NCBI GenBank assembly: GCA_021776275.1
Contig: JAJFGH010000074.1
Location: 1 to 53,937 of the forward strand
Source of the DNA: Alphaproteobacteria bacterium
Lineage (GTDB): Bacteria; Pseudomonadota; Alphaproteobacteria; GCA-2746255
Length of the DNA: 53,937 bases
Direction of reading: 5' to 3'
The position numbers and the translations under genes were made by a program. Of this stretch, positions 224 to 47,150 are shown piece by piece; position 1 is the stretch's first letter; each line of letters opens with the position of its first letter. The notes under the pieces are model-generated. The model was not told the origin of the DNA and searched no databases. It saw nothing but the letters and a program-made list of their open reading frames with translations.

Positions 224-1156
224 TTGTTGCAGATTCGTGTTTTGGGATCGGCGGCGGGCGGCGGCCTCCCGCAGTGGAATTGCAATTGTTCGATCTGCCA
301 ACGTGCCCGCGCGAAGGACCCGATGGTTCGGCCCCGAACCCAATCGTCGCTGGTTGTGCGCGCCGGGGACGGCCCTTGGTTCCTGTTGAACGCCTCGCCC
401 GATCTGCGCCAGCAACTAAACGAAACCCCCGCCCTGCACCCAGCCGATATGGGCCGCGGAAGCCCCATCGGCGGCGCCGTTGTGACCAACGCCGACATCG
501 ACCACATTGCCGGGCTGTTGAACTTGCGCGAAAGCCAGCCGCTGCGCCTTTACGCGACGGCGCGCGTACAAGAAACGTTCAACGCAAACCGAATTTTTAA
601 CGCCCTCAACCCAGAGATGGTGCGTCGAAGCCCGTTCGCCCTTGGCCAGCCAACGCGCCTTGAAACCGCCGACAACGCCCCTTCGGGTCTTGTCGTCGAA
701 GCCTTCACCGTTCCGGGGAAAGTGGCGCTTTATTTGGAAGACCCAACCGCCGGCCCCAATTTTGGCAGCGTTCCGGAGGACACGATCGCGCTTCGGGTGG
801 CATCGGAGACGGGCGATCGCCATTTCTATTACATTCCGGGCTGCGCCACCTTTCCCGACCCATTGGCGGAGCGCCTGGATGGCGCGCCCCTCGTCTTCTT
901 CGACGGCACGCTTTGGACGGACGATGAAATGATTGCGGCAGGCGTTGGCATAAAGACGGGAAAGCGCATGGGACATATGAGCATTTCCGGCCAGGACGGT
1001 ACTCTAGCCGCCTTTCAGAAACTGGACGTGAAGCGTAAAATCTTTATTCACCTGAACAACACGAACCCCGTTCTTGTGGAAGACTCGCCGGAACGCAAAC
1101 GCGTCGAAGAGGCGGGCTGGGAAGTTGCCTATGACGGCATGGAGATTTGCCTGTGA
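224..1156 (+). CDS. pqqB: PQQ biosynthesis protein B (metallo-beta-lactamase fold)
   Basis: 310 aa. The N-terminus IRVLGSAAGGGLPQWNCNCSICQRAR is typical of PqqB. Position between pqqA and pqqC. Confidence 0.95.
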   Translation: MLQIRVLGSAAGGGLPQWNCNCSICQRARAKDPMVRPRTQSSLVVRAGDGPWFLLNASPDLRQQLNETPALHPADMGRGSPIGGAVVTNADIDHIAGLLNLRESQPLRLYATARVQETFNANRIFNALNPEMVRRSPFALGQPTRLETADNAPSGLVVEAFTVPGKVALYLEDPTAGPNFGSVPEDTIALRVASETGDRHFYYIPGCATFPDPLAERLDGAPLVFFDGTLWTDDEMIAAGVGIKTGKRMGHMSISGQDGTLAAFQKLDVKRKIFIHLNNTNPVLVEDSPERKRVEEAGWEVAYDGMEICL

Positions 1157-22512: not shown

Positions 22513-23414
22513 CGACGGTCTTTCTCACCGGCGCTTCCGGCCAGCTTGGCCAAGCGGTGGCAGGCGAGTTGCTGGCCCGGGGCCATGAGGTGGCGGCGAT
22601 GGTGCGCCGGCCCGTTTTTCCCAAGGGTTGTCGCCCGGTTCTCGGCACGCTCGAAGACGTCGGCCAATTGGCCCATGAGATAGCCAAGGCCGACGCCATC
22701 GTCCATGTCGCATCGGCACGCAGCAACAACCGGGAAGAGGTGGTTCAGAAGGACATCCTTGGCACTGGGCATCTTCTCGATGCCTGGGCGCGAGGAAACT
22801 TCGTCTATGCCAGCAGCCAGACGGTTTACGGCGTGCCCCAAGGCGACCTTACCGAGGCCGCCCCCTTGCAACCGGTCGTCTGGTACGACCTTGGAAAAAT
22901 CTGCAACGAATTTCAAATCGCAATGGCGGCGGAAACGGGCAATCGTGGCGCCGGCCTTTCCCTTCGCATGGCCGTCATGTTTGGCCCCGTTGCAAAAAGC
23001 AAAGGCCCGCCGCAATTTCACGAGATGATTTACGAGGAATGCCAAAAAGGCAGCGCGTTTCTCCTGGATTCGGAGGAGGCGCTTGAAACCTACGGCACGT
23101 CCTTCATCGGCGATCGCGACTTGGCACGCGCCATCGCCGATTCTATCAGCCTTACCGAGACCGGCCCCTACAACATCGCCGGGCCTTTCTGCAGCTGGAA
23201 GGAATTGATTGAAACCATCGACCGATTTGCCGGCACGCGGTCGAAATTCATCTTTCGGAAAGGCGCCGTGCCAAAGCCTGGGGAATTCCGCTTGCCGCAA
23301 TCGCGCTCGTTTATCAATTCACAAAAATTCGACGCGGCAACGGGCTTTTGCGCAGAACAAACTTTGGAAGAACTGATTGAGCGGTTTGTCCAATTTCGCA
23401 GCGACTCTAAATAA
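22509..23414 (+). CDS. NAD(P)-dependent epimerase/dehydratase family (extended SDR) protein
   Basis: TGASGQLGQAVAGELLARGHEV Rossmann motif and a YDLGK (YxxxK) catalytic motif. ATGA overlap with the radical SAM stop. Confidence 0.9.
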   Translation: MTTVFLTGASGQLGQAVAGELLARGHEVAAMVRRPVFPKGCRPVLGTLEDVGQLAHEIAKADAIVHVASARSNNREEVVQKDILGTGHLLDAWARGNFVYASSQTVYGVPQGDLTEAAPLQPVVWYDLGKICNEFQIAMAAETGNRGAGLSLRMAVMFGPVAKSKGPPQFHEMIYEECQKGSAFLLDSEEALETYGTSFIGDRDLARAIADSISLTETGPYNIAGPFCSWKELIETIDRFAGTRSKFIFRKGAVPKPGEFRLPQSRSFINSQKFDAATGFCAEQTLEELIERFVQFRSDSK

Positions 23415-23442
23415 AAAGGCCCGCGCAAAGCGCGGGCCCTTT
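23415..23442. terminator. Strong bidirectional rho-independent terminator
   Basis: AAAAGGCCCGCGC-AAA-GCGCGGGCCCTTT. Separates the SDR gene (+) from cspA (-). Confidence 0.85.
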
Positions 23443-23466
23443 CATTTCATCTTATCCGCAGCCGGA

Positions 23467-23676
23467 TTAGTCGGCGAGCTTCAAATTGCCGGCAAAGGTT
23501 TTACCATTCTGCCCGCTCTCAAGCTCATACTCGACCTGCTGACCTTCATTGAGGCCCGGCAGTCCAGCACGCTCGACCGCTGAAACATGGACGAAGACAT
23601 CCTTCGATCCATCTTCTGGCGTAATAAACCCATATCCTTTGACAGGGTTGAACCATTTCACGGTTCCAGTACTCAT
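23467..23676 (-). CDS. cspA: Cold-shock protein (CspA family)
   Basis: [34 protein letters not shown]... contains the RNP1/RNP2 motifs. Start at 23676 after an AAGAAGGAA ribosome-binding site. Confidence 0.95.
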
Positions 23677-23884
23677 TTGACTTATTCCTTCTTTAATTGT
23701 CATAGCCGCCCGCACGTTACGCGTAGGCGCGTCCTCGTTAAAAAATTCCTGGGGTATAGCAGCTAGGTCGGCTTGACAAAGCAGGATACGTCCGGGTCTT
23801 CGAAGACGAAGAGGATGATATAGGGCGAAGGCCACAAAATTTCAAAGAATTTGTAAAAACCCCTTGTAAATCAGGGGGGATAGG

Positions 23885-23934
23885 TGGTGGGCGCACACGG
23901 ACTCGAACCGTGGACCCGCTGATCAAGCGTCAGG
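23885..23934 (-). pseudogene. tRNA-Lys 3' fragment (degenerate anticodon arm, T-arm, acceptor 3' strand, CCA)
   Basis: The reverse complement reads CCTGACGCTTGATCAGCGGGTCCACGGTTCGAGTCCGTGTGCGCCCACCA. The T-arm CACGG/TTCGAGT/CCGTG is intact, but the anticodon loop has G at positions 33 and 37 and there is no proper D-arm upstream. Confidence 0.6.
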
Positions 23935-24199
23935 TGTGCTATCTAGCAAACGGTCGTTTAACGCGCCCCTGCGAGGGCGAACGACGACATGGTCGCGGCC
24001 TTGAGCATGGCGTGGTTCGGGGTGATGCACTGCTCGGGCTCACTCGGCCCGCCGAGGGAGGTCAATTGGTAGACGGAGATTTACACGAAGGAAACCAACA
24101 CCTTCCTCGGTATCTAAAAGGGAGTTAGTTAGCGACAAGTCTACTACAAGTTGGCTATAATCCAATTCTGCGACAAATGTGCGCAAAGGAGGATAAGAG

Positions 24200-24847
24200 T
24201 TGGATACGAACGTCCCATATATGCCGTCGGTGACCAACCTCCAGAAAATCTTGGACGCAATCCAAAAGGCTGGCGTTCCTGAAGTTTTTAATCTCGACTT
24301 TTTGAAGGACTTAGGATTTACGAGTTCCAATGATCGACCAGTAATCAAGGTCTTGAAATATCTCGGTATGCTAGACCCTTCAGGGCACCCGCAGACTGCT
24401 TACCGTGAGTTTGTTGACCATACTAAGGCAAAGGGAGTGCTCGCAGGGCGCATACGCGCCGCCTTCGACGACCTTTACCTCAGCGACAAGGATGCTCACA
24501 ACAAATCTGCAGAACAGCTTAAAGGCTGGTTCAAAACCAAAACAGGTGCAAGTGATTCTGTCGCGAAAAAGATGGCAACGCAGTTCAAATCACTTGCAGC
24601 CTACGCTGATTTCACAGCCGCCCTGGATGCTGAACCCAAAACCCCAGAGGCGGAGCCTGAAAAGAAAGATAAAATTGAGCCAGAAAAAAACGATAAGGAG
24701 AAGCCAACGGATTTACCGCCGCCTCCCATATCTGACATGAAGGGTTTGGGCTTTGTTTATCGGCTGGAAATTCATCTTCCTGACACGCAGAATGTGGAAA
24801 CGTTTCGCGCGATTTTCCGTGCTCTGCGAGAAGAGCTCATGCCGTGA
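24200..24847 (+). CDS. DUF5343-like protein
   Basis: TTG start after an AAGGAGGA ribosome-binding site. The N-terminal VPYMPSVTNLQKILDAIQKAGVPEVFNLDFLKDLGFTSSNDRPVIKVLKYLGMLD pattern matches my recollection of DUF5343. Acidic/Lys-rich linker. Confidence 0.65.
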   Translation: MDTNVPYMPSVTNLQKILDAIQKAGVPEVFNLDFLKDLGFTSSNDRPVIKVLKYLGMLDPSGHPQTAYREFVDHTKAKGVLAGRIRAAFDDLYLSDKDAHNKSAEQLKGWFKTKTGASDSVAKKMATQFKSLAAYADFTAALDAEPKTPEAEPEKKDKIEPEKNDKEKPTDLPPPPISDMKGLGFVYRLEIHLPDTQNVETFRAIFRALREELMP

Positions 24848-25419
24848 AATCACAGATAAACGATTTTGTCTTCACCGGGGTCCTGGCTTCACACTGCATC
24901 CGTGACCTGCAAGCTAAAGGTCTCCTCCGAACGCCAGCGGTAACACCTGACGAACGGCGCGAACAAGATTTGTTCGCACCGGTCCCGGAAAGTATCCGCG
25001 GCGGCTCCATTCAGATGCAGCGCTGGTATCGAATGCTATTTGTATTTGAGAATCTCGTGCGAGACTTCATTATTACTCGCTTAAAGGAACTAGACGGAGA
25101 AGGTTGGTTTGAAAAACGTGCATCAAGCCAGATGAAGAAAAAAGTCGAGGATCGGGAGAAGAATGAGGAAAAAAATCAATGGCATATCGGTAGAAATAAG
25201 CAGCCTATTTTCTATCTGGATTTCGGCGACCTTGGGCTCCTTATCACCAACCACTGGAACGTTTTCAACGATTTCTTCGATAATCAAGCTTGGGTCATTA
25301 GCCGCATTCAGGATGCAGAGCGGACGAGAAATGTTATCGCGCACACGAATCTCCTGTCCTCTGAAGAAGGAGAACGTCTCGAAATGTATTTACGAGACTT
25401 CTTAAGGCAGATCGGTTGA
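24844..25419 (+). CDS. Swt1-like HEPN domain protein (putative RNase)
   Basis: GTGA overlap with the upstream gene. Rx4H motif RNVIAH at nt 25327-25344, with an upstream helix FENLVRDFI typical of HEPN. Confidence 0.7.
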   Translation: MKSQINDFVFTGVLASHCIRDLQAKGLLRTPAVTPDERREQDLFAPVPESIRGGSIQMQRWYRMLFVFENLVRDFIITRLKELDGEGWFEKRASSQMKKKVEDREKNEEKNQWHIGRNKQPIFYLDFGDLGLLITNHWNVFNDFFDNQAWVISRIQDAERTRNVIAHTNLLSSEEGERLEMYLRDFLRQIG

Positions 25420-25476
25420 GGCCAAAGACACAGCATCGTGCGCTCGGCCCTACACGCCGGGACCAGTATCAGAGCG

Positions 25477-26022
25477 ATGGATGATCCCGCGACATGGAAG
25501 GACCTAATTCCGGTTATCAGCGTGATGACCGCACTGGTAGCAGTCATCGTTTCGCCACTCGTGAGCTGGATGATCGCCAGACGCCAACTCGACATCGTCA
25601 AACACCAGATTTCTTCTTCAAATGTTTCCTCTAAGAGGCAAGTCTGGATAGACGAGTTGCGGCAGGACATCGCCGAGGCTCTAGCCCTAATGTCTCGAAT
25701 TGAAGAACTTAAAAGACCAAGCCCCAACCTTAATGAAAATGAGCATCTAGAGGTTTTTGATCGGAGAATGGAAGCCGAGTTACGTGCTACCGAACTCCTG
25801 ATGCGGATCAGGCTGCGGCTTAACCCAAATGAGCAGGTACACAACGACTTGGTGAGTGCGTTTCAAGAGGTTGCGCTCGCGGCCCCTGATCCAAAGCCGG
25901 GTGAGACGGAAGAAGACCGACACAGGTTGCAGGCAGGGTTTAAATCTGCCCGCGACAAAGCCCTTGGGATCACGCAAACGATTCTGAAGAATGAGTGGAA
26001 CCGCGTACGACGCGGCGAATAG
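25477..26022 (+). CDS. Small membrane-anchored hypothetical protein
   Basis: ORF 25438..26022. The likely start is MDDPATW at 25477. One N-terminal TM helix (LIPVISVMTALVAVIVSPLVSWMIA), then a helical, charged region. Confidence 0.55.
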   Translation: MDDPATWKDLIPVISVMTALVAVIVSPLVSWMIARRQLDIVKHQISSSNVSSKRQVWIDELRQDIAEALALMSRIEELKRPSPNLNENEHLEVFDRRMEAELRATELLMRIRLRLNPNEQVHNDLVSAFQEVALAAPDPKPGETEEDRHRLQAGFKSARDKALGITQTILKNEWNRVRRGE

Positions 26023-26084
26023 CACGAGAGACCCGTCTACTTTTCTAGTGCGTAGTAGGGAGAAGCATCAAAGGTCAAATTAAA

Positions 26085-26115
26085 TGGGGTCAGAACGATG
26101 TGCCGTTCTGACCCC
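26085..26115. terminator. 12-bp hairpin just downstream of the tRNA-Lys 3' end (likely tRNA terminator on the minus strand)
   Basis: GGGGTCAGAACG-ATGTTGC-CGTTCTGACCCC. On the minus strand it is followed by ATTTAATTT. Confidence 0.5.
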
Positions 26116-26125
26116 TTCGAGGAAT

Positions 26126-26410
26126 TGGTGGGCGATGCAGGGCTCGAACCTGCGACCCGCTGATTACTCCACCACTACGGCTTTCGCCGCCCCTTTCGGG
26201 TTTGTGGCCCGGACTATCCCATCACCATATCCCGGAGGATGTAGGTGGGTGCCGTCTAGTCTCTACACCTTCCCCTTGCGGGGCTTGGCTCGGGATTGCC
26301 AACGTCCATGGACGGAAGGGTTCCCCGAATTTGACACCTGTTCACCGCGCCGTTTCCAACGCGGGCTCCCAATCGAGAGTCAGCTGCTCTACCAACTGAG
26401 CTAATCGCCC
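26126..26410 (-). tRNA. tRNA-Lys(CUU) interrupted by a 209-nt group I intron in the anticodon loop
   Basis: 5' exon 26376-26410: GGGCGATTAGCTCAGTTGGTAGAGCAGCTGACTCT (positions 1-35). 3' exon 26126-26166: TAATCAGCGGGTCGCAGGTTCGAGCCCTGCATCGCCCACCA. Spliced, this gives a 76-nt cloverleaf with anticodon loop CUCUUAA. Confidence 0.9.
26167..26375 (-). ncRNA. Group I (IC3, Azoarcus-like) self-splicing intron
   Basis: Contains GGTGTCAAATTCGGGGAACCC, TTGGCAATCCCGAGCCAAGCC and GGAAGGTGTAGAGACTAGACGGCACCCACCTA, which closely match the Azoarcus tRNA-Ile intron core as I remember it. P1 is exon CUCU paired to GGAG with a U.G wobble at the splice site. P10 is GAUU paired to exon AAUC. The intron ends in G. 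Confidence 0.85.
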
Positions 26411-26530
26411 TTAGTGATTCCCCCGTTTAACCTCAACATCAATAAGCGAAAAGTCATCAAAATGCCATCAAAATCTTAGCTAAATAACGACTAACCTATT
26501 GTTTTTACTACAGTTACAGCCGACACACCA

Positions 26531-26573
26531 TCTGATTAAGAGTCAGCTGCTCTACCAACTGAGCTATGCGCCC
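26531..26573 (-). pseudogene. tRNA-Lys(CUU) 5' fragment (acceptor 5' strand, D-arm, anticodon arm; no T-arm)
   Basis: The reverse complement reads GGGCGCATAGCTCAGTTGGTAGAGCAGCTGACTCTTAATCAGA. It is followed by non-tRNA sequence (TGGTGTGTCGGCTGTAAC...). Confidence 0.6.
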
Positions 26574-26647
26574 CAAGGGGGAAGCCCCTATAGCAAAGCC
26601 CGCCCGTCTTGTCGATAGGCCAGCGAAATCCGACCGCCTGAAGGCCT

Positions 26648-46716: not shown

Positions 46717-46842
46717 TGGGCCTTCCACGCGTTCGTCCGGTCGGCACTTTAGCGCCTGGGTCCGGCCAAGGCCAGCGCTCCCGCGCGCGAAAATCCCCCC
46801 GGCCAACCTTTCCACCGCGCCCCGAAGTGCCTATATTAGAGG

Positions 46843-47150
46843 GGTCGGTTTTCCGGCTATGGCAATAAACGTTAAGTGAAATAGACGGTGCGGACCCGGG
46901 GGCAGTACCCGGCGCCTCCACCAAATTTACCTGCCCAATCGTCTTGGACGATGGGCGCTTTGGGGGCGAACTAGGATCGACGCACGTGATAAAGGCTTAA
47001 TTTTTGCTCGGTATGATACCACCGTTATCGGGTCGTTTTATAAGTGCCAATGACAACAATCGTTATGCACTCGCTGCTTAAGCATTAAGCAAGCGCGGTC
47101 CGGGGGGCACCGGGCAACAGAAGCCCCCCACCTGCCACCTGCGAAGCCGG
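46843..47150 (+). ncRNA. ssrA: Circularly permuted (two-piece) tmRNA gene ssrA; outer boundaries approximate
   Basis: The acceptor piece ends CCGGG-GGCAGTA-CCCGG-CGCCTCC-A-CCA at 46923. The coding piece starts GGGGGCGAACTAGGATCGACG at 46962. GGGGGCG/CGCCTCC form an acceptor stem with a G3.U70 pair. The tag ORF GCC AAT GAC AAC AAT CGT TAT GCA CTC GCT GCT TAA (47046-47081) encodes ANDNNRYALAA. Confidence 0.8.

Follow-up and report, generated by a model that had tools for sequence, protein, structure and literature searches.

An intron-split tRNA-Lys(CUU) gene on a strain-variable islet at a split resident tRNA gene in an alphaproteobacterium

The subject of this study is a tRNA-Lys(CUU) gene interrupted by a group I intron, located at 26410..26126 on the minus strand of contig JAJFGH010000074.1 from an Alphaproteobacteria bacterium. 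The window, by which we mean the whole 53,937-nucleotide (nt) stretch that was analyzed, carries this gene within an insert of about 2.6 kb between rodA and cspA. The insert is flanked by the two halves (5' and 3' relics) of a second, intron-less tRNA-Lys(CUU) gene, here called the resident gene. We consider it highly likely that the intron-split gene, which looks functional, is not the ancestral copy at this site but belongs to an islet that replaces the destroyed resident gene.

A tRNA-Lys(CUU) gene with a group I intron

The intron separates U35 from U36. Joining the exons yields a 76-nt perfect cloverleaf that ARAGORN classifies as tRNA-Lys(ctt). This register alone combines a 7-nt loop with a U at -1 and a terminal G, and it agrees with the U35-to-U36 junction and CUCUUAA loop put forward in an earlier note on this DNA. 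U35, the -1 nucleotide of the 5' splice site, finds its G partner in P1, and the terminal omega-G of the intron (26167) has a counterpart in all 62 resolved homologues, which likewise end in G. The 5' exon is identical in the loci with the two nearest introns (L061 and L027).

Standard tools handle the gene poorly. In default mode, ARAGORN reports no tRNA at 26410..26126; its intron mode places the gene ends correctly but calls a tRNA-Arg(ccg) with a 188-nt intron, with the wrong splice sites and isotype. Miscalls of this type are described in a preprint by Williams (2020; bioRxiv 10.1101/2020.01.27.920355). Across the whole window, Rfam matches RF00028 at 55.9 bits (gathering score, 50 bits; E = 1.4e-11), so that the covariance-model check proposed in the earlier note gives a score above gathering. 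We discarded the Rfam ends (26453..26187) because P1 and P2 were mis-aligned onto upstream DNA, and used exon-based mapping instead.

The splice-site pairings drawn in the earlier note (P1 with its U.G wobble, P10, and the terminal G) are all present. The internal guide, 5'-GAUUG/GGAG-3', is complementary to the ligated exon junction, CUCU/UAAUC. CUCU and GGAG form the four pairs of P1, the last of them the U35.G wobble, while GAUUG and UAAUC form the five contiguous pairs of P10. By analogy with the family, this guide would pair with both exons, exogenous G would attack after U35 at the P1 wobble, omega-G would dock in P7, and exon ligation would give the 7-nt loop CUCUUAA.

Helices P1 to P9, including the P7 pseudoknot, are supported by covariation among homologues. 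A single-sequence minimum-energy fold recovers P1, P2, P3, P4, P5, P6a, P8, and the branched P9. For comparative analysis, we aligned 60 homologous tRNA-Lys introns, each with 6 nt of exon per side. From this alignment RNAalifold predicts P1, P2 (GAAA loop), P3, P4, P5, P6, P6a, P8, P9, P9a, and P9b (GAAA loop), with compensatory change in 36 of its 56 pairs. The final counts refer to 13 helices and 59 pairs, after addition of the P7 pseudoknot and removal of two spurious exon-exon pairs. In this structure 97.8% of alignment cells pair, whereas sliding the partners leaves 34-47% paired. Changes on both sides occur in 38 of the 59 pairs; the observed values were reached by no shuffle. P7 is 100% paired, with two covarying pairs, and the splice-site U.G pair is found in 60/60 introns.

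The closest comparison points the same way. The window and L061 introns differ at six positions: one compensatory pair in P2, two hairpin-loop changes, and two unpaired positions. The tRNA T-stem shows a compensatory change as well. The adjacent 5' relic has accumulated 4 changes in 42 nt, versus none in the 35-nt 5' exon. This pattern is what would be expected under continued selection for a folded, working RNA.

The RF00028 match, the spliced cloverleaf, and the covariation together bear out the assignment, made in the earlier note, of an Azoarcus-like (IC3-type) group I intron in a tRNA-Lys(CUU) anticodon loop. That note also took the tRNA-Lys(CUU) host and the 35/36 site to be undescribed, and here it was mistaken, because Williams (2020; bioRxiv 10.1101/2020.01.27.920355) already lists a Lys.4Ug setting and our genome scan recovered such introns in 69 species representatives. 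The preprint enlarged the catalogue of settings in which bacterial tRNAs are split by introns, from 4 to 21, and its seed alignment includes Mpe6.Lys.4Ug, Mle24.Lys.3Ug, and Dba165.Lys.2Ug, in which position 4 denotes 35/36. Full-text searches for tRNA-Lys group I introns in the peer-reviewed literature gave nothing relevant. The intron thus adds one more representative to a widespread class that is already catalogued but experimentally untouched, and is not new as a kind.

We scanned one genome per species (GTDB) with the pattern TGACTYT-N(3-12)-GGGAG-N(20-45)-TCAAANTCGGNGAA. The 78 matches comprised 67 complete tRNA-Lys genes with a 35/36 intron, two cut by contig ends, and nine spurious hits. 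Among the 69 genes, about 50 have the anticodon CUU and 19 have UUU. Their hosts are mainly Pyrinomonadaceae and other Acidobacteriota, together with many Alphaproteobacteria, a few Gammaproteobacteria and Chloroflexota, and one Bacteroidota. The Neomegalonema perideroedes intron (L025) is identical to Williams' Mpe6. The intron nearest to that of the window (97% identity) is L061, from an Alphaproteobacteria metagenome-assembled genome (MAG; SZUA-147), followed by L027 (87%). A metagenome scan with the spacer motif gave no match, one with the 21-mer exon-intron junction gave a single chance match that was intron-less, and a viral-contig scan with the tRNA-Lys/intron pattern gave a single spurious match.

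Three other intron-containing genes deserve mention. A 1.6-kb contig from a MAG labelled 'Candidatus Woesearchaeota archaeon' (L048, CAZOQD010000160.1) carries a tRNA-Lys(CUU) gene with a 209-nt group I intron. This is probably a mis-binned bacterial contig; similar mis-binning was suspected by Williams (2020; bioRxiv 10.1101/2020.01.27.920355). The L059 intron starts with TAATCAG, a copy of the start of the 3' exon, so that its genomic sequence reads across the 5' splice site as if the anticodon loop were uninterrupted. Finally, plasmid pCTX-M3 (L090, NC_004464.2, about 61.83-62.13 kb) has an unannotated tRNA-Leu(UAA) gene with a group I intron at 34/35, near aac(3)-IId. Its spliced product was checked with ARAGORN, and its RF00028 score (36.8 bits) is under the gathering score. 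Another 1,275 plasmid records, most of them from enterobacterial conjugative plasmids, carry such tRNA-Leu(UAA) genes.

A split resident tRNA gene and its strain-variable insert

The resident tRNA-Lys(CUU) gene is split between nt 42 and nt 43. Its 5' relic lies directly downstream of mreC-mreD-pbp2-rodA, behind the native upstream region, and forms an attL-like junction that continues into ATGGTGTG.... At the right junction, which is attR-like, the 3' relic follows an imperfect anticodon stem-loop mimic and lacks a 5' half. The acceptor halves of the two relics (GGGCGCA and TGCGCCC) pair with each other, and not with those of the intact intron gene (GGGCGAT and ATCGCCC). The core common to both junctions is the anticodon stem-loop only (GCTGACTCTTAATCAG versus CCTGACGCTTGATCAG), and neither Rfam nor ARAGORN finds an intact tRNA at either junction. 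As the earlier note had it, the locus has no intact tRNA-Lys(CUU) other than the intron-split gene; the neighboring fragment is one half of the resident gene split by the insert.

When joined, the reconstructed ends of the insert form an imperfect palindrome, CACACCTGA-CGCTTGA-TCAGATGGTGTG, of a kind that would be typical of a tyrosine-recombinase core. The circular junction of the excised islet is predicted to read ...CACACCTGACGCTTGATCAG/ATGGTGTGTCGG.... The insert lies in the anticodon stem-loop region of the resident gene downstream of rodA. Because the resident gene is split, neither junction rebuilds a tRNA, and the intron gene lies inside the insert, the islet gene most likely complements or replaces the resident one. 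Transcription would probably run from the resident promoter through the relic and the spacer, and end at the intron gene's own hairpin. A possible sigma-70-type promoter (TCGACA-N17-TATAGG), spotted by eye at 26600-26640 on the minus strand and conserved in L079, lies just 5' of the 5' relic. It was not among the hits of a consensus scan, and transcription starting there could read through relic, spacer, and intron gene.

The insert has a GC content of 0.49-0.50, versus about 0.56-0.61 in its flanks. It contains the spacer, the intron-split tRNA gene, a terminator-like hairpin, and three plus-strand genes. Two of these, encoding a DUF5343 protein and a Swt1-like HEPN protein (a predicted RNase), together match the PADLOC candidate defense system PDC-M34. 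An exact-protein look-up with the DUF5343 protein returned only a 1.5-kb contig. A predicted HEPN RNase and a tRNA-Lys gene thus travel on one islet.

The spacer contains a tandem repeat (ATTTTGATGGC/ATTTTGATGAC; 26474-26453, minus strand). In L061, both copies read ATTTCGATGRC, and because the same T-to-C change is thus seen twice, the repeat may be a protein-binding site, either an arm-type site or a promoter element. Arm-type repeats matching ATTTTGATGRC were sought at the right end of the insert, and none were found.

Close relatives carry different content at the same site. The window's CspA, used as the query of an exact-protein look-up, retrieved metagenome contigs (L079-L086) that match the window at 97% identity over 30000 to 26532 and again over 23933 to 23405. 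Identity with L079 ends exactly at 26532 (tRNA nt 42) and resumes at 23933. In these contigs, the order is an intact intron-less tRNA-Lys(CUU) gene with the relics' acceptor stem, about 1.1 kb with a CBS-domain gene, the 3' relic, and cspA. The islet of the L079 type is a classical, reconstituting tRNA islet that alternates with the window's insert. The 2.6 kb of the window is therefore a strain-variable segment that ends at the attachment cores.

A module of relic, spacer, and intron gene is shared with a more distant lineage. In L061, it is 90% identical to that of the window and the spacer about 80% conserved, different sequence follows the tRNA, and rodA is just 71% identical. By these comparisons, the module has moved between distant lineages.

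Relics also recur beside other intron-containing tRNA-Lys genes. In L015, L033, L037, L043, L061, and L067 (anticodon UUU), a 5' relic of an intron-less tRNA-Lys lies 97-230 nt upstream and ends at nt 38-45, which is within or just past the 3' strand of the anticodon stem; in L036 the relic is inverted. The regions downstream of relic-bearing loci have no shared protein that we could find. We tested 10 selected downstream open reading frames (ORFs) with Pfam, from L004, L015, L037, and L043 and up to about 4.8 kb from the intron gene. None of the 10 encodes an integrase, and the cargo is diverse and accessory (a KaiC-like ATPase, XRE regulators, a Mob_Pre relaxase, DUF6338, and a porin).

Two features outside the insert are also of note. 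The cspA gene, downstream of the 3' relic (23411-23859, minus strand), shows a sub-threshold match to the RF01766 thermoregulator over its 5' leader and coding region (32 bits versus 78). A two-piece (permuted) alphaproteobacterial tmRNA gene lies at 46805-47132 on the plus strand (RF01849, 261 bits; tag ANDNNRYALAA), and its type places the window in Alphaproteobacteria.

Table 1. Features of the intron-split tRNA-Lys(CUU) gene, its intron, the surrounding insert, and related elements. Positions are those of the window unless a locus is given.
Feature	Position	Strand	Details
5' exon, nt 1-35	26410..26376	-	35 nt; ends ...GACTCT = C32 U33 C34 U35; full reading GGGCGATTAGCTCAGTTGGTAGAGCAGCTGACTCT
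Group I intron, IC3-like, 'Lys.4Ug' setting	26375..26167	-	209 nt; start CGATTGGGAG, end GGTGGAG; no ORF
3' exon, nt 36-76	26166..26126	-	41 nt; TAATCAGC...CCACCA, CCA encoded; first U36 A37 A38; full reading TAATCAGCGGGTCGCAGGTTCGAGCCCTGCATCGCCCACCA
P1	26379-26375 / 26370-26366	-
P10 guide	26374-26370	-	GAUUG
P2	26364-26345	-	GAAA loop
P3	26338-26333 / 26253-26248	-
P4	26328-26323 / 26295-26290	-
P5	26319-26299	-
P6/P6a	26289-26267	-
P7	26261-26257 / 26216-26212	-
P8	26247-26223	-
P9	26208-26171	-	three-way junction, GAAA loop
omega-G	26167	-
Terminator-like hairpin	26086..26115	-	13-bp stem and short T-containing tail; ATTTAATTTG; directly 3' of intron gene; inverted repeat I6
AT-rich spacer	26411..26531	-	121 nt, between 5' relic and intron gene; left end of insert
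5' relic, nt 1-42, of resident intron-less tRNA-Lys(CUU)	26573..26532	-	GGGCGCA...GCTGA CTCTTAA TCAG; Rfam tRNA partial match
attR-like junction	23885..23934	-	anticodon stem-loop mimic and 3' relic; repeat D1
Anticodon stem-loop mimic	23934..23919	-	CCTGACGCTTGATCAG; imperfect copy
3' relic, nt 43-76	23918..23885	-	CGGGTC CACGG TTCGAGT CCGTG TGCGCCC A CCA
Strain-variable insert, about 2.6 kb	23935..26531		spacer, intron-tRNA, terminator, three plus-strand genes
DUF5343 protein gene, PDC-M34A	24200..24847	+	Pfam 6.5e-40; PADLOC 4.5e-65
Swt1-like HEPN (predicted RNase) gene, PDC-M34B	24844..25419	+	Pfam 2.1e-12; PADLOC 2.1e-56
194-aa ORF	25438..26022	+	one predicted transmembrane helix; no family match
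Reconstituting islet at same site	L079 4543-5790		also L080-L082; CBS-domain gene; integrase-less
Daredevil tRNA-Lys(UUU) intron gene	L091 about 793-1107		about 560 nt from gp54
Daredevil anticodon stem-loop mimic	L091 625-641		ACGGACTTTTAATCCGC; about 150 nt upstream of tRNA; 16/17 match to own uninterrupted stem-loop

Origin and possible role of the islet

Phages provide counterparts for both the target and the design of the locus. In Brucella phage BiPBO1 (L092, NC_031264.1, 1596-1641), nt 32-76 of tRNA-Lys(CUU) lie immediately 3' of a tyrosine integrase gene, as a classical phage attachment site (attP). This attP places the crossover of an alphaproteobacterial-phage integrase in the same anticodon loop that the window's intron interrupts. 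A phmmer search with the BiPBO1 integrase gave no match, either in the window or in the further regions that it covered.

A BLAST search of phage genomes with the window's gene led to Gordonia phage Daredevil (L091, NC_048021.1, about 41.8-42.3 kb). Daredevil has an unannotated, complete tRNA-Lys(UUU) gene with a homologous group I intron at 34/35, between integrase gene gp54 and gp53, and upstream of it an anticodon stem-loop mimic that runs on into non-tRNA sequence. Rfam gave no report for this intron at E <= 0.01; its identification is by homology and the spliced cloverleaf. Daredevil displays the window's architecture in a free element. Published work states that this phage targets tRNA-Lys-TTT, does not reconstitute it, has no tRNA of its own, and forms clear plaques (Guerrero-Bustamante & Hatfull 2024, PMC10865867). 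It appears instead to be a case of a complementing tRNA hidden by an intron.

Several observations weigh against a functional islet gene that has replaced the resident one by site-specific recombination. There are 3 mismatches in 16 positions between the two core copies. Pfam, NCBIfam, PADLOC, and phmmer found no integrase or recombinase in the insert, and one cannot fit there because no ORF exceeds 215 aa. The element would thus be a remnant or have moved in trans, and its mode of insertion is read from the junctions. The RF00028 score is just 6 bits over threshold, and the single-sequence folding z-score is modest (-1.35). The right-junction mimic is common to the window and L079, with two indels, so that the history may have been a tandem integration after which the older islet was deleted, a cassette exchange, or direct integration. 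In L004 and L016, tRNA-Lys(CUU) intron genes are followed by a 3' relic from about nt 38 (+1770 and +478 from the splice site, respectively) and have no 5' relic. These are classical islands, which can therefore still integrate in the 3' exon of intron-containing genes, and not every relic near an intron gene reflects the relic-spacer-gene mechanism. Finally, a second tRNA-Lys(CUU) gene beyond the 54-kb window could make the islet copy dispensable. Decoding of AAG, which the earlier note saw as possibly dependent on self-splicing, may draw on such a copy or on a tRNA-Lys(UUU) with modified U34, which also reads AAG.

The best-surviving alternative, which we regard as improbable, is that the intron gene is the native gene after rodA, inherited vertically, and that the relics were left by unrelated island integrations and excisions of the ordinary kind. 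Seven other alphaproteobacterial loci (L006, L011, L012, L028, L044, L057, and L074), in which rodA is followed by an intron-containing tRNA-Lys(CUU) gene and no relic was detected, are what this history would leave; the classical islands behind the intron genes of L004 and L016 and the mimic shared with L079 also speak for it. However, it is the 5' relic that occupies the native position: its upstream sequence is 97% identical to that of L079 up to tRNA nt 42, beyond which L079 has an intact intron-less gene. The relics are also partners of each other and not of the intron gene, which itself lies within a low-GC, strain-variable segment, and the closest intron (97%, L061) belongs to a genome whose rodA is only 71% identical.

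A slightly less probable origin again would involve no site-specific recombination: either a tandem tRNA-Lys duplication followed by deletion, or capture of foreign DNA at an endonuclease break in the anticodon region of an intron-less tRNA-Lys gene. The lack of a recombinase gene in the insert is consistent with this, and the relic ends, which in independent loci cluster at nt 38-45, might point to a site of cleavage. Against it stand the intron, which has no ORF, and the anticodon stem-loop mimic at the right end together with the palindromic joined ends. The same kind of mimic lies beside an integrase gene in the free element Daredevil, and the BiPBO1 integrase uses the anticodon loop of tRNA-Lys(CUU).

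That the intron or its tRNA is a decaying selfish element in a pseudogene is very hard to credit: the RF00028 score is near threshold and Daredevil, with a comparable gene, is reported as clear-plaque, as if it had no complementing tRNA (PMC10865867), but the core elements are all intact with P7 and J6/7 identical to those of the active Azoarcus ribozyme, the exons form a perfect cloverleaf plus CCA, the differences from L061 are compensatory or in loops while the adjacent relic has disruptive ones, and destruction of the resident gene should lead selection to maintain the islet copy. Two further candidates were rejected. Intron homing or reverse splicing does not account for the relics, as their junction falls at nt 42/43 and not at the intron site 35/36, and an assembly artefact is countered by the same relic-spacer-gene junctions in L061.

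On the favored reading of an islet gene that replaces the resident one, the intron itself might have a role. We put forward, as a tentative idea that we rate as rather doubtful, that an intron in the anticodon loop would remove the attachment core from the element's own complementing tRNA-Lys gene and so act as an insulator, not as a mere passenger. The combination of a mimic, a short spacer, and an intron-split tRNA-Lys gene in both the window islet and Daredevil would fit this idea, as would the suspicion, voiced in PMC10865867, that an element's own intron-less tRNA acts as a secondary bacterial attachment site (attB). Other bacterial loci show the relic-spacer-gene part of the design alone, and the islands of L004 and L016, which integrated in the 3' exon of intron-containing genes, weigh against it. 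Ascertainment is biased, because the search covered only intron-containing genes. If the idea holds, an attP mimic and its cognate tRNA gene could lie about 120-230 nt apart without recombining with each other and without the tRNA gene serving as a secondary attB. In more general terms, group I introns in anticodon loops could then shield tRNA genes from integrases that cross over there, which would provide a testable selective rationale for group I introns in tRNA anticodon loops.

The locus also has consequences for annotation. Genes of this type are overlooked or misidentified by standard tRNA finders, and genomes may therefore appear to have no tRNA-Lys(CUU). Because a complementing tRNA can hide behind a group I intron, surveys based on tRNAscan or ARAGORN would under-count the strategy of disrupting a host tRNA while bringing one's own. 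The present locus would extend this mode of integration from actinobacteriophages to small, integrase-less defense islets in Alphaproteobacteria.

Comparison with known systems

The intron closely resembles the Azoarcus tRNA-Ile intron, whose sequence we took from the supplementary seed alignment of Williams (2020). Both are about 205-209 nt long, have no ORF, and lie in a tRNA anticodon loop; both have a short P1 with a U.G pair, a terminal G, and GAAA tetraloops on P2 and P9. The structural alignment suggested in the earlier note gives the same P3-P8 architecture at 62% overall identity, and the three core blocks quoted there (GGUGUCAAAUUCGG, GAGCCAAGC, and GAAGGUGUAGAGACUAGACGGCACCCACCUA) are exact in both introns. 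They also share, without any difference, a 31-nt block that covers J6/7, the 5' strand of P7, and the 3' strand of P3, and likewise the P7 3' strand, AUAGUCC. The Azoarcus host is tRNA-Ile(CAU) with insertion at 36/37, whereas the window has tRNA-Lys(CUU) with insertion at 35/36 and its own guide, GAUUG/GGAG. P9 is a three-way junction with two hairpins in the window and a single hairpin in Azoarcus. The Azoarcus ribozyme is active, and the window intron is predicted to be so from its sequence.

Closer still is the Lys.4Ug setting of Williams (Mpe6), which shares the isotype, the site after the fourth loop nucleotide, the U at -1, and the G at omega. The Mpe6 seed is 75% identical to the window intron and has the same helices, including the branched P9. 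Its anticodon is UUU and that of the window is CUU, the commoner host in our genome scan. The window's subgroup has 5 bp in P10, whereas most class members have two contiguous pairs.

The less ordinary part is the context: an intron-split complementing tRNA gene on a defense islet that destroyed the resident gene. Islander-type islands, the BiPBO1 attP, and the CBS islet of L079 likewise target the anticodon loop and stem of tRNA-Lys(CUU) and leave a displaced 3' fragment at the far end. A classical tRNA island brings the 3' portion of the tRNA with it and thereby restores an intact gene at the junction, whereas in the window the junction is dead and a separate, complete gene is supplied.

This arrangement is closest to tRNA-dependent lysogeny (Guerrero-Bustamante & Hatfull 2024, PMC10865867), in which a tyrosine integrase uses a core of roughly 10 bp within a host tRNA gene, with tRNA-Lys as the most frequent target; the host tRNA is not rebuilt, and a phage tRNA of the same isotype compensates. 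Like actinobacteriophages Fionnbharth and LeBron (PMC10865867), the window islet lies in a host tRNA gene via a short common core, leaves no functional tRNA at either junction, and carries the cognate tRNA-Lys(CUU) 121 nt inside the insert, on which the host would then depend. It differs in its alphaproteobacterial host, in being a 2.6-kb islet with PDC-M34 cargo and no integrase or phage genes, and in the short distance, only 121 nt, between the complementing tRNA and the junction. A group I intron in the complementing tRNA is present in the window, while PMC10865867 mentions none. The window thus shares three features of tRNA-dependent integration (target, non-reconstitution, and cognate tRNA) but not the integrase or the temperate phage. 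For this reason, we do not count it as a member of that family, and describe it as an islet without an integrase that either derives from such an element or operates in a similar way.

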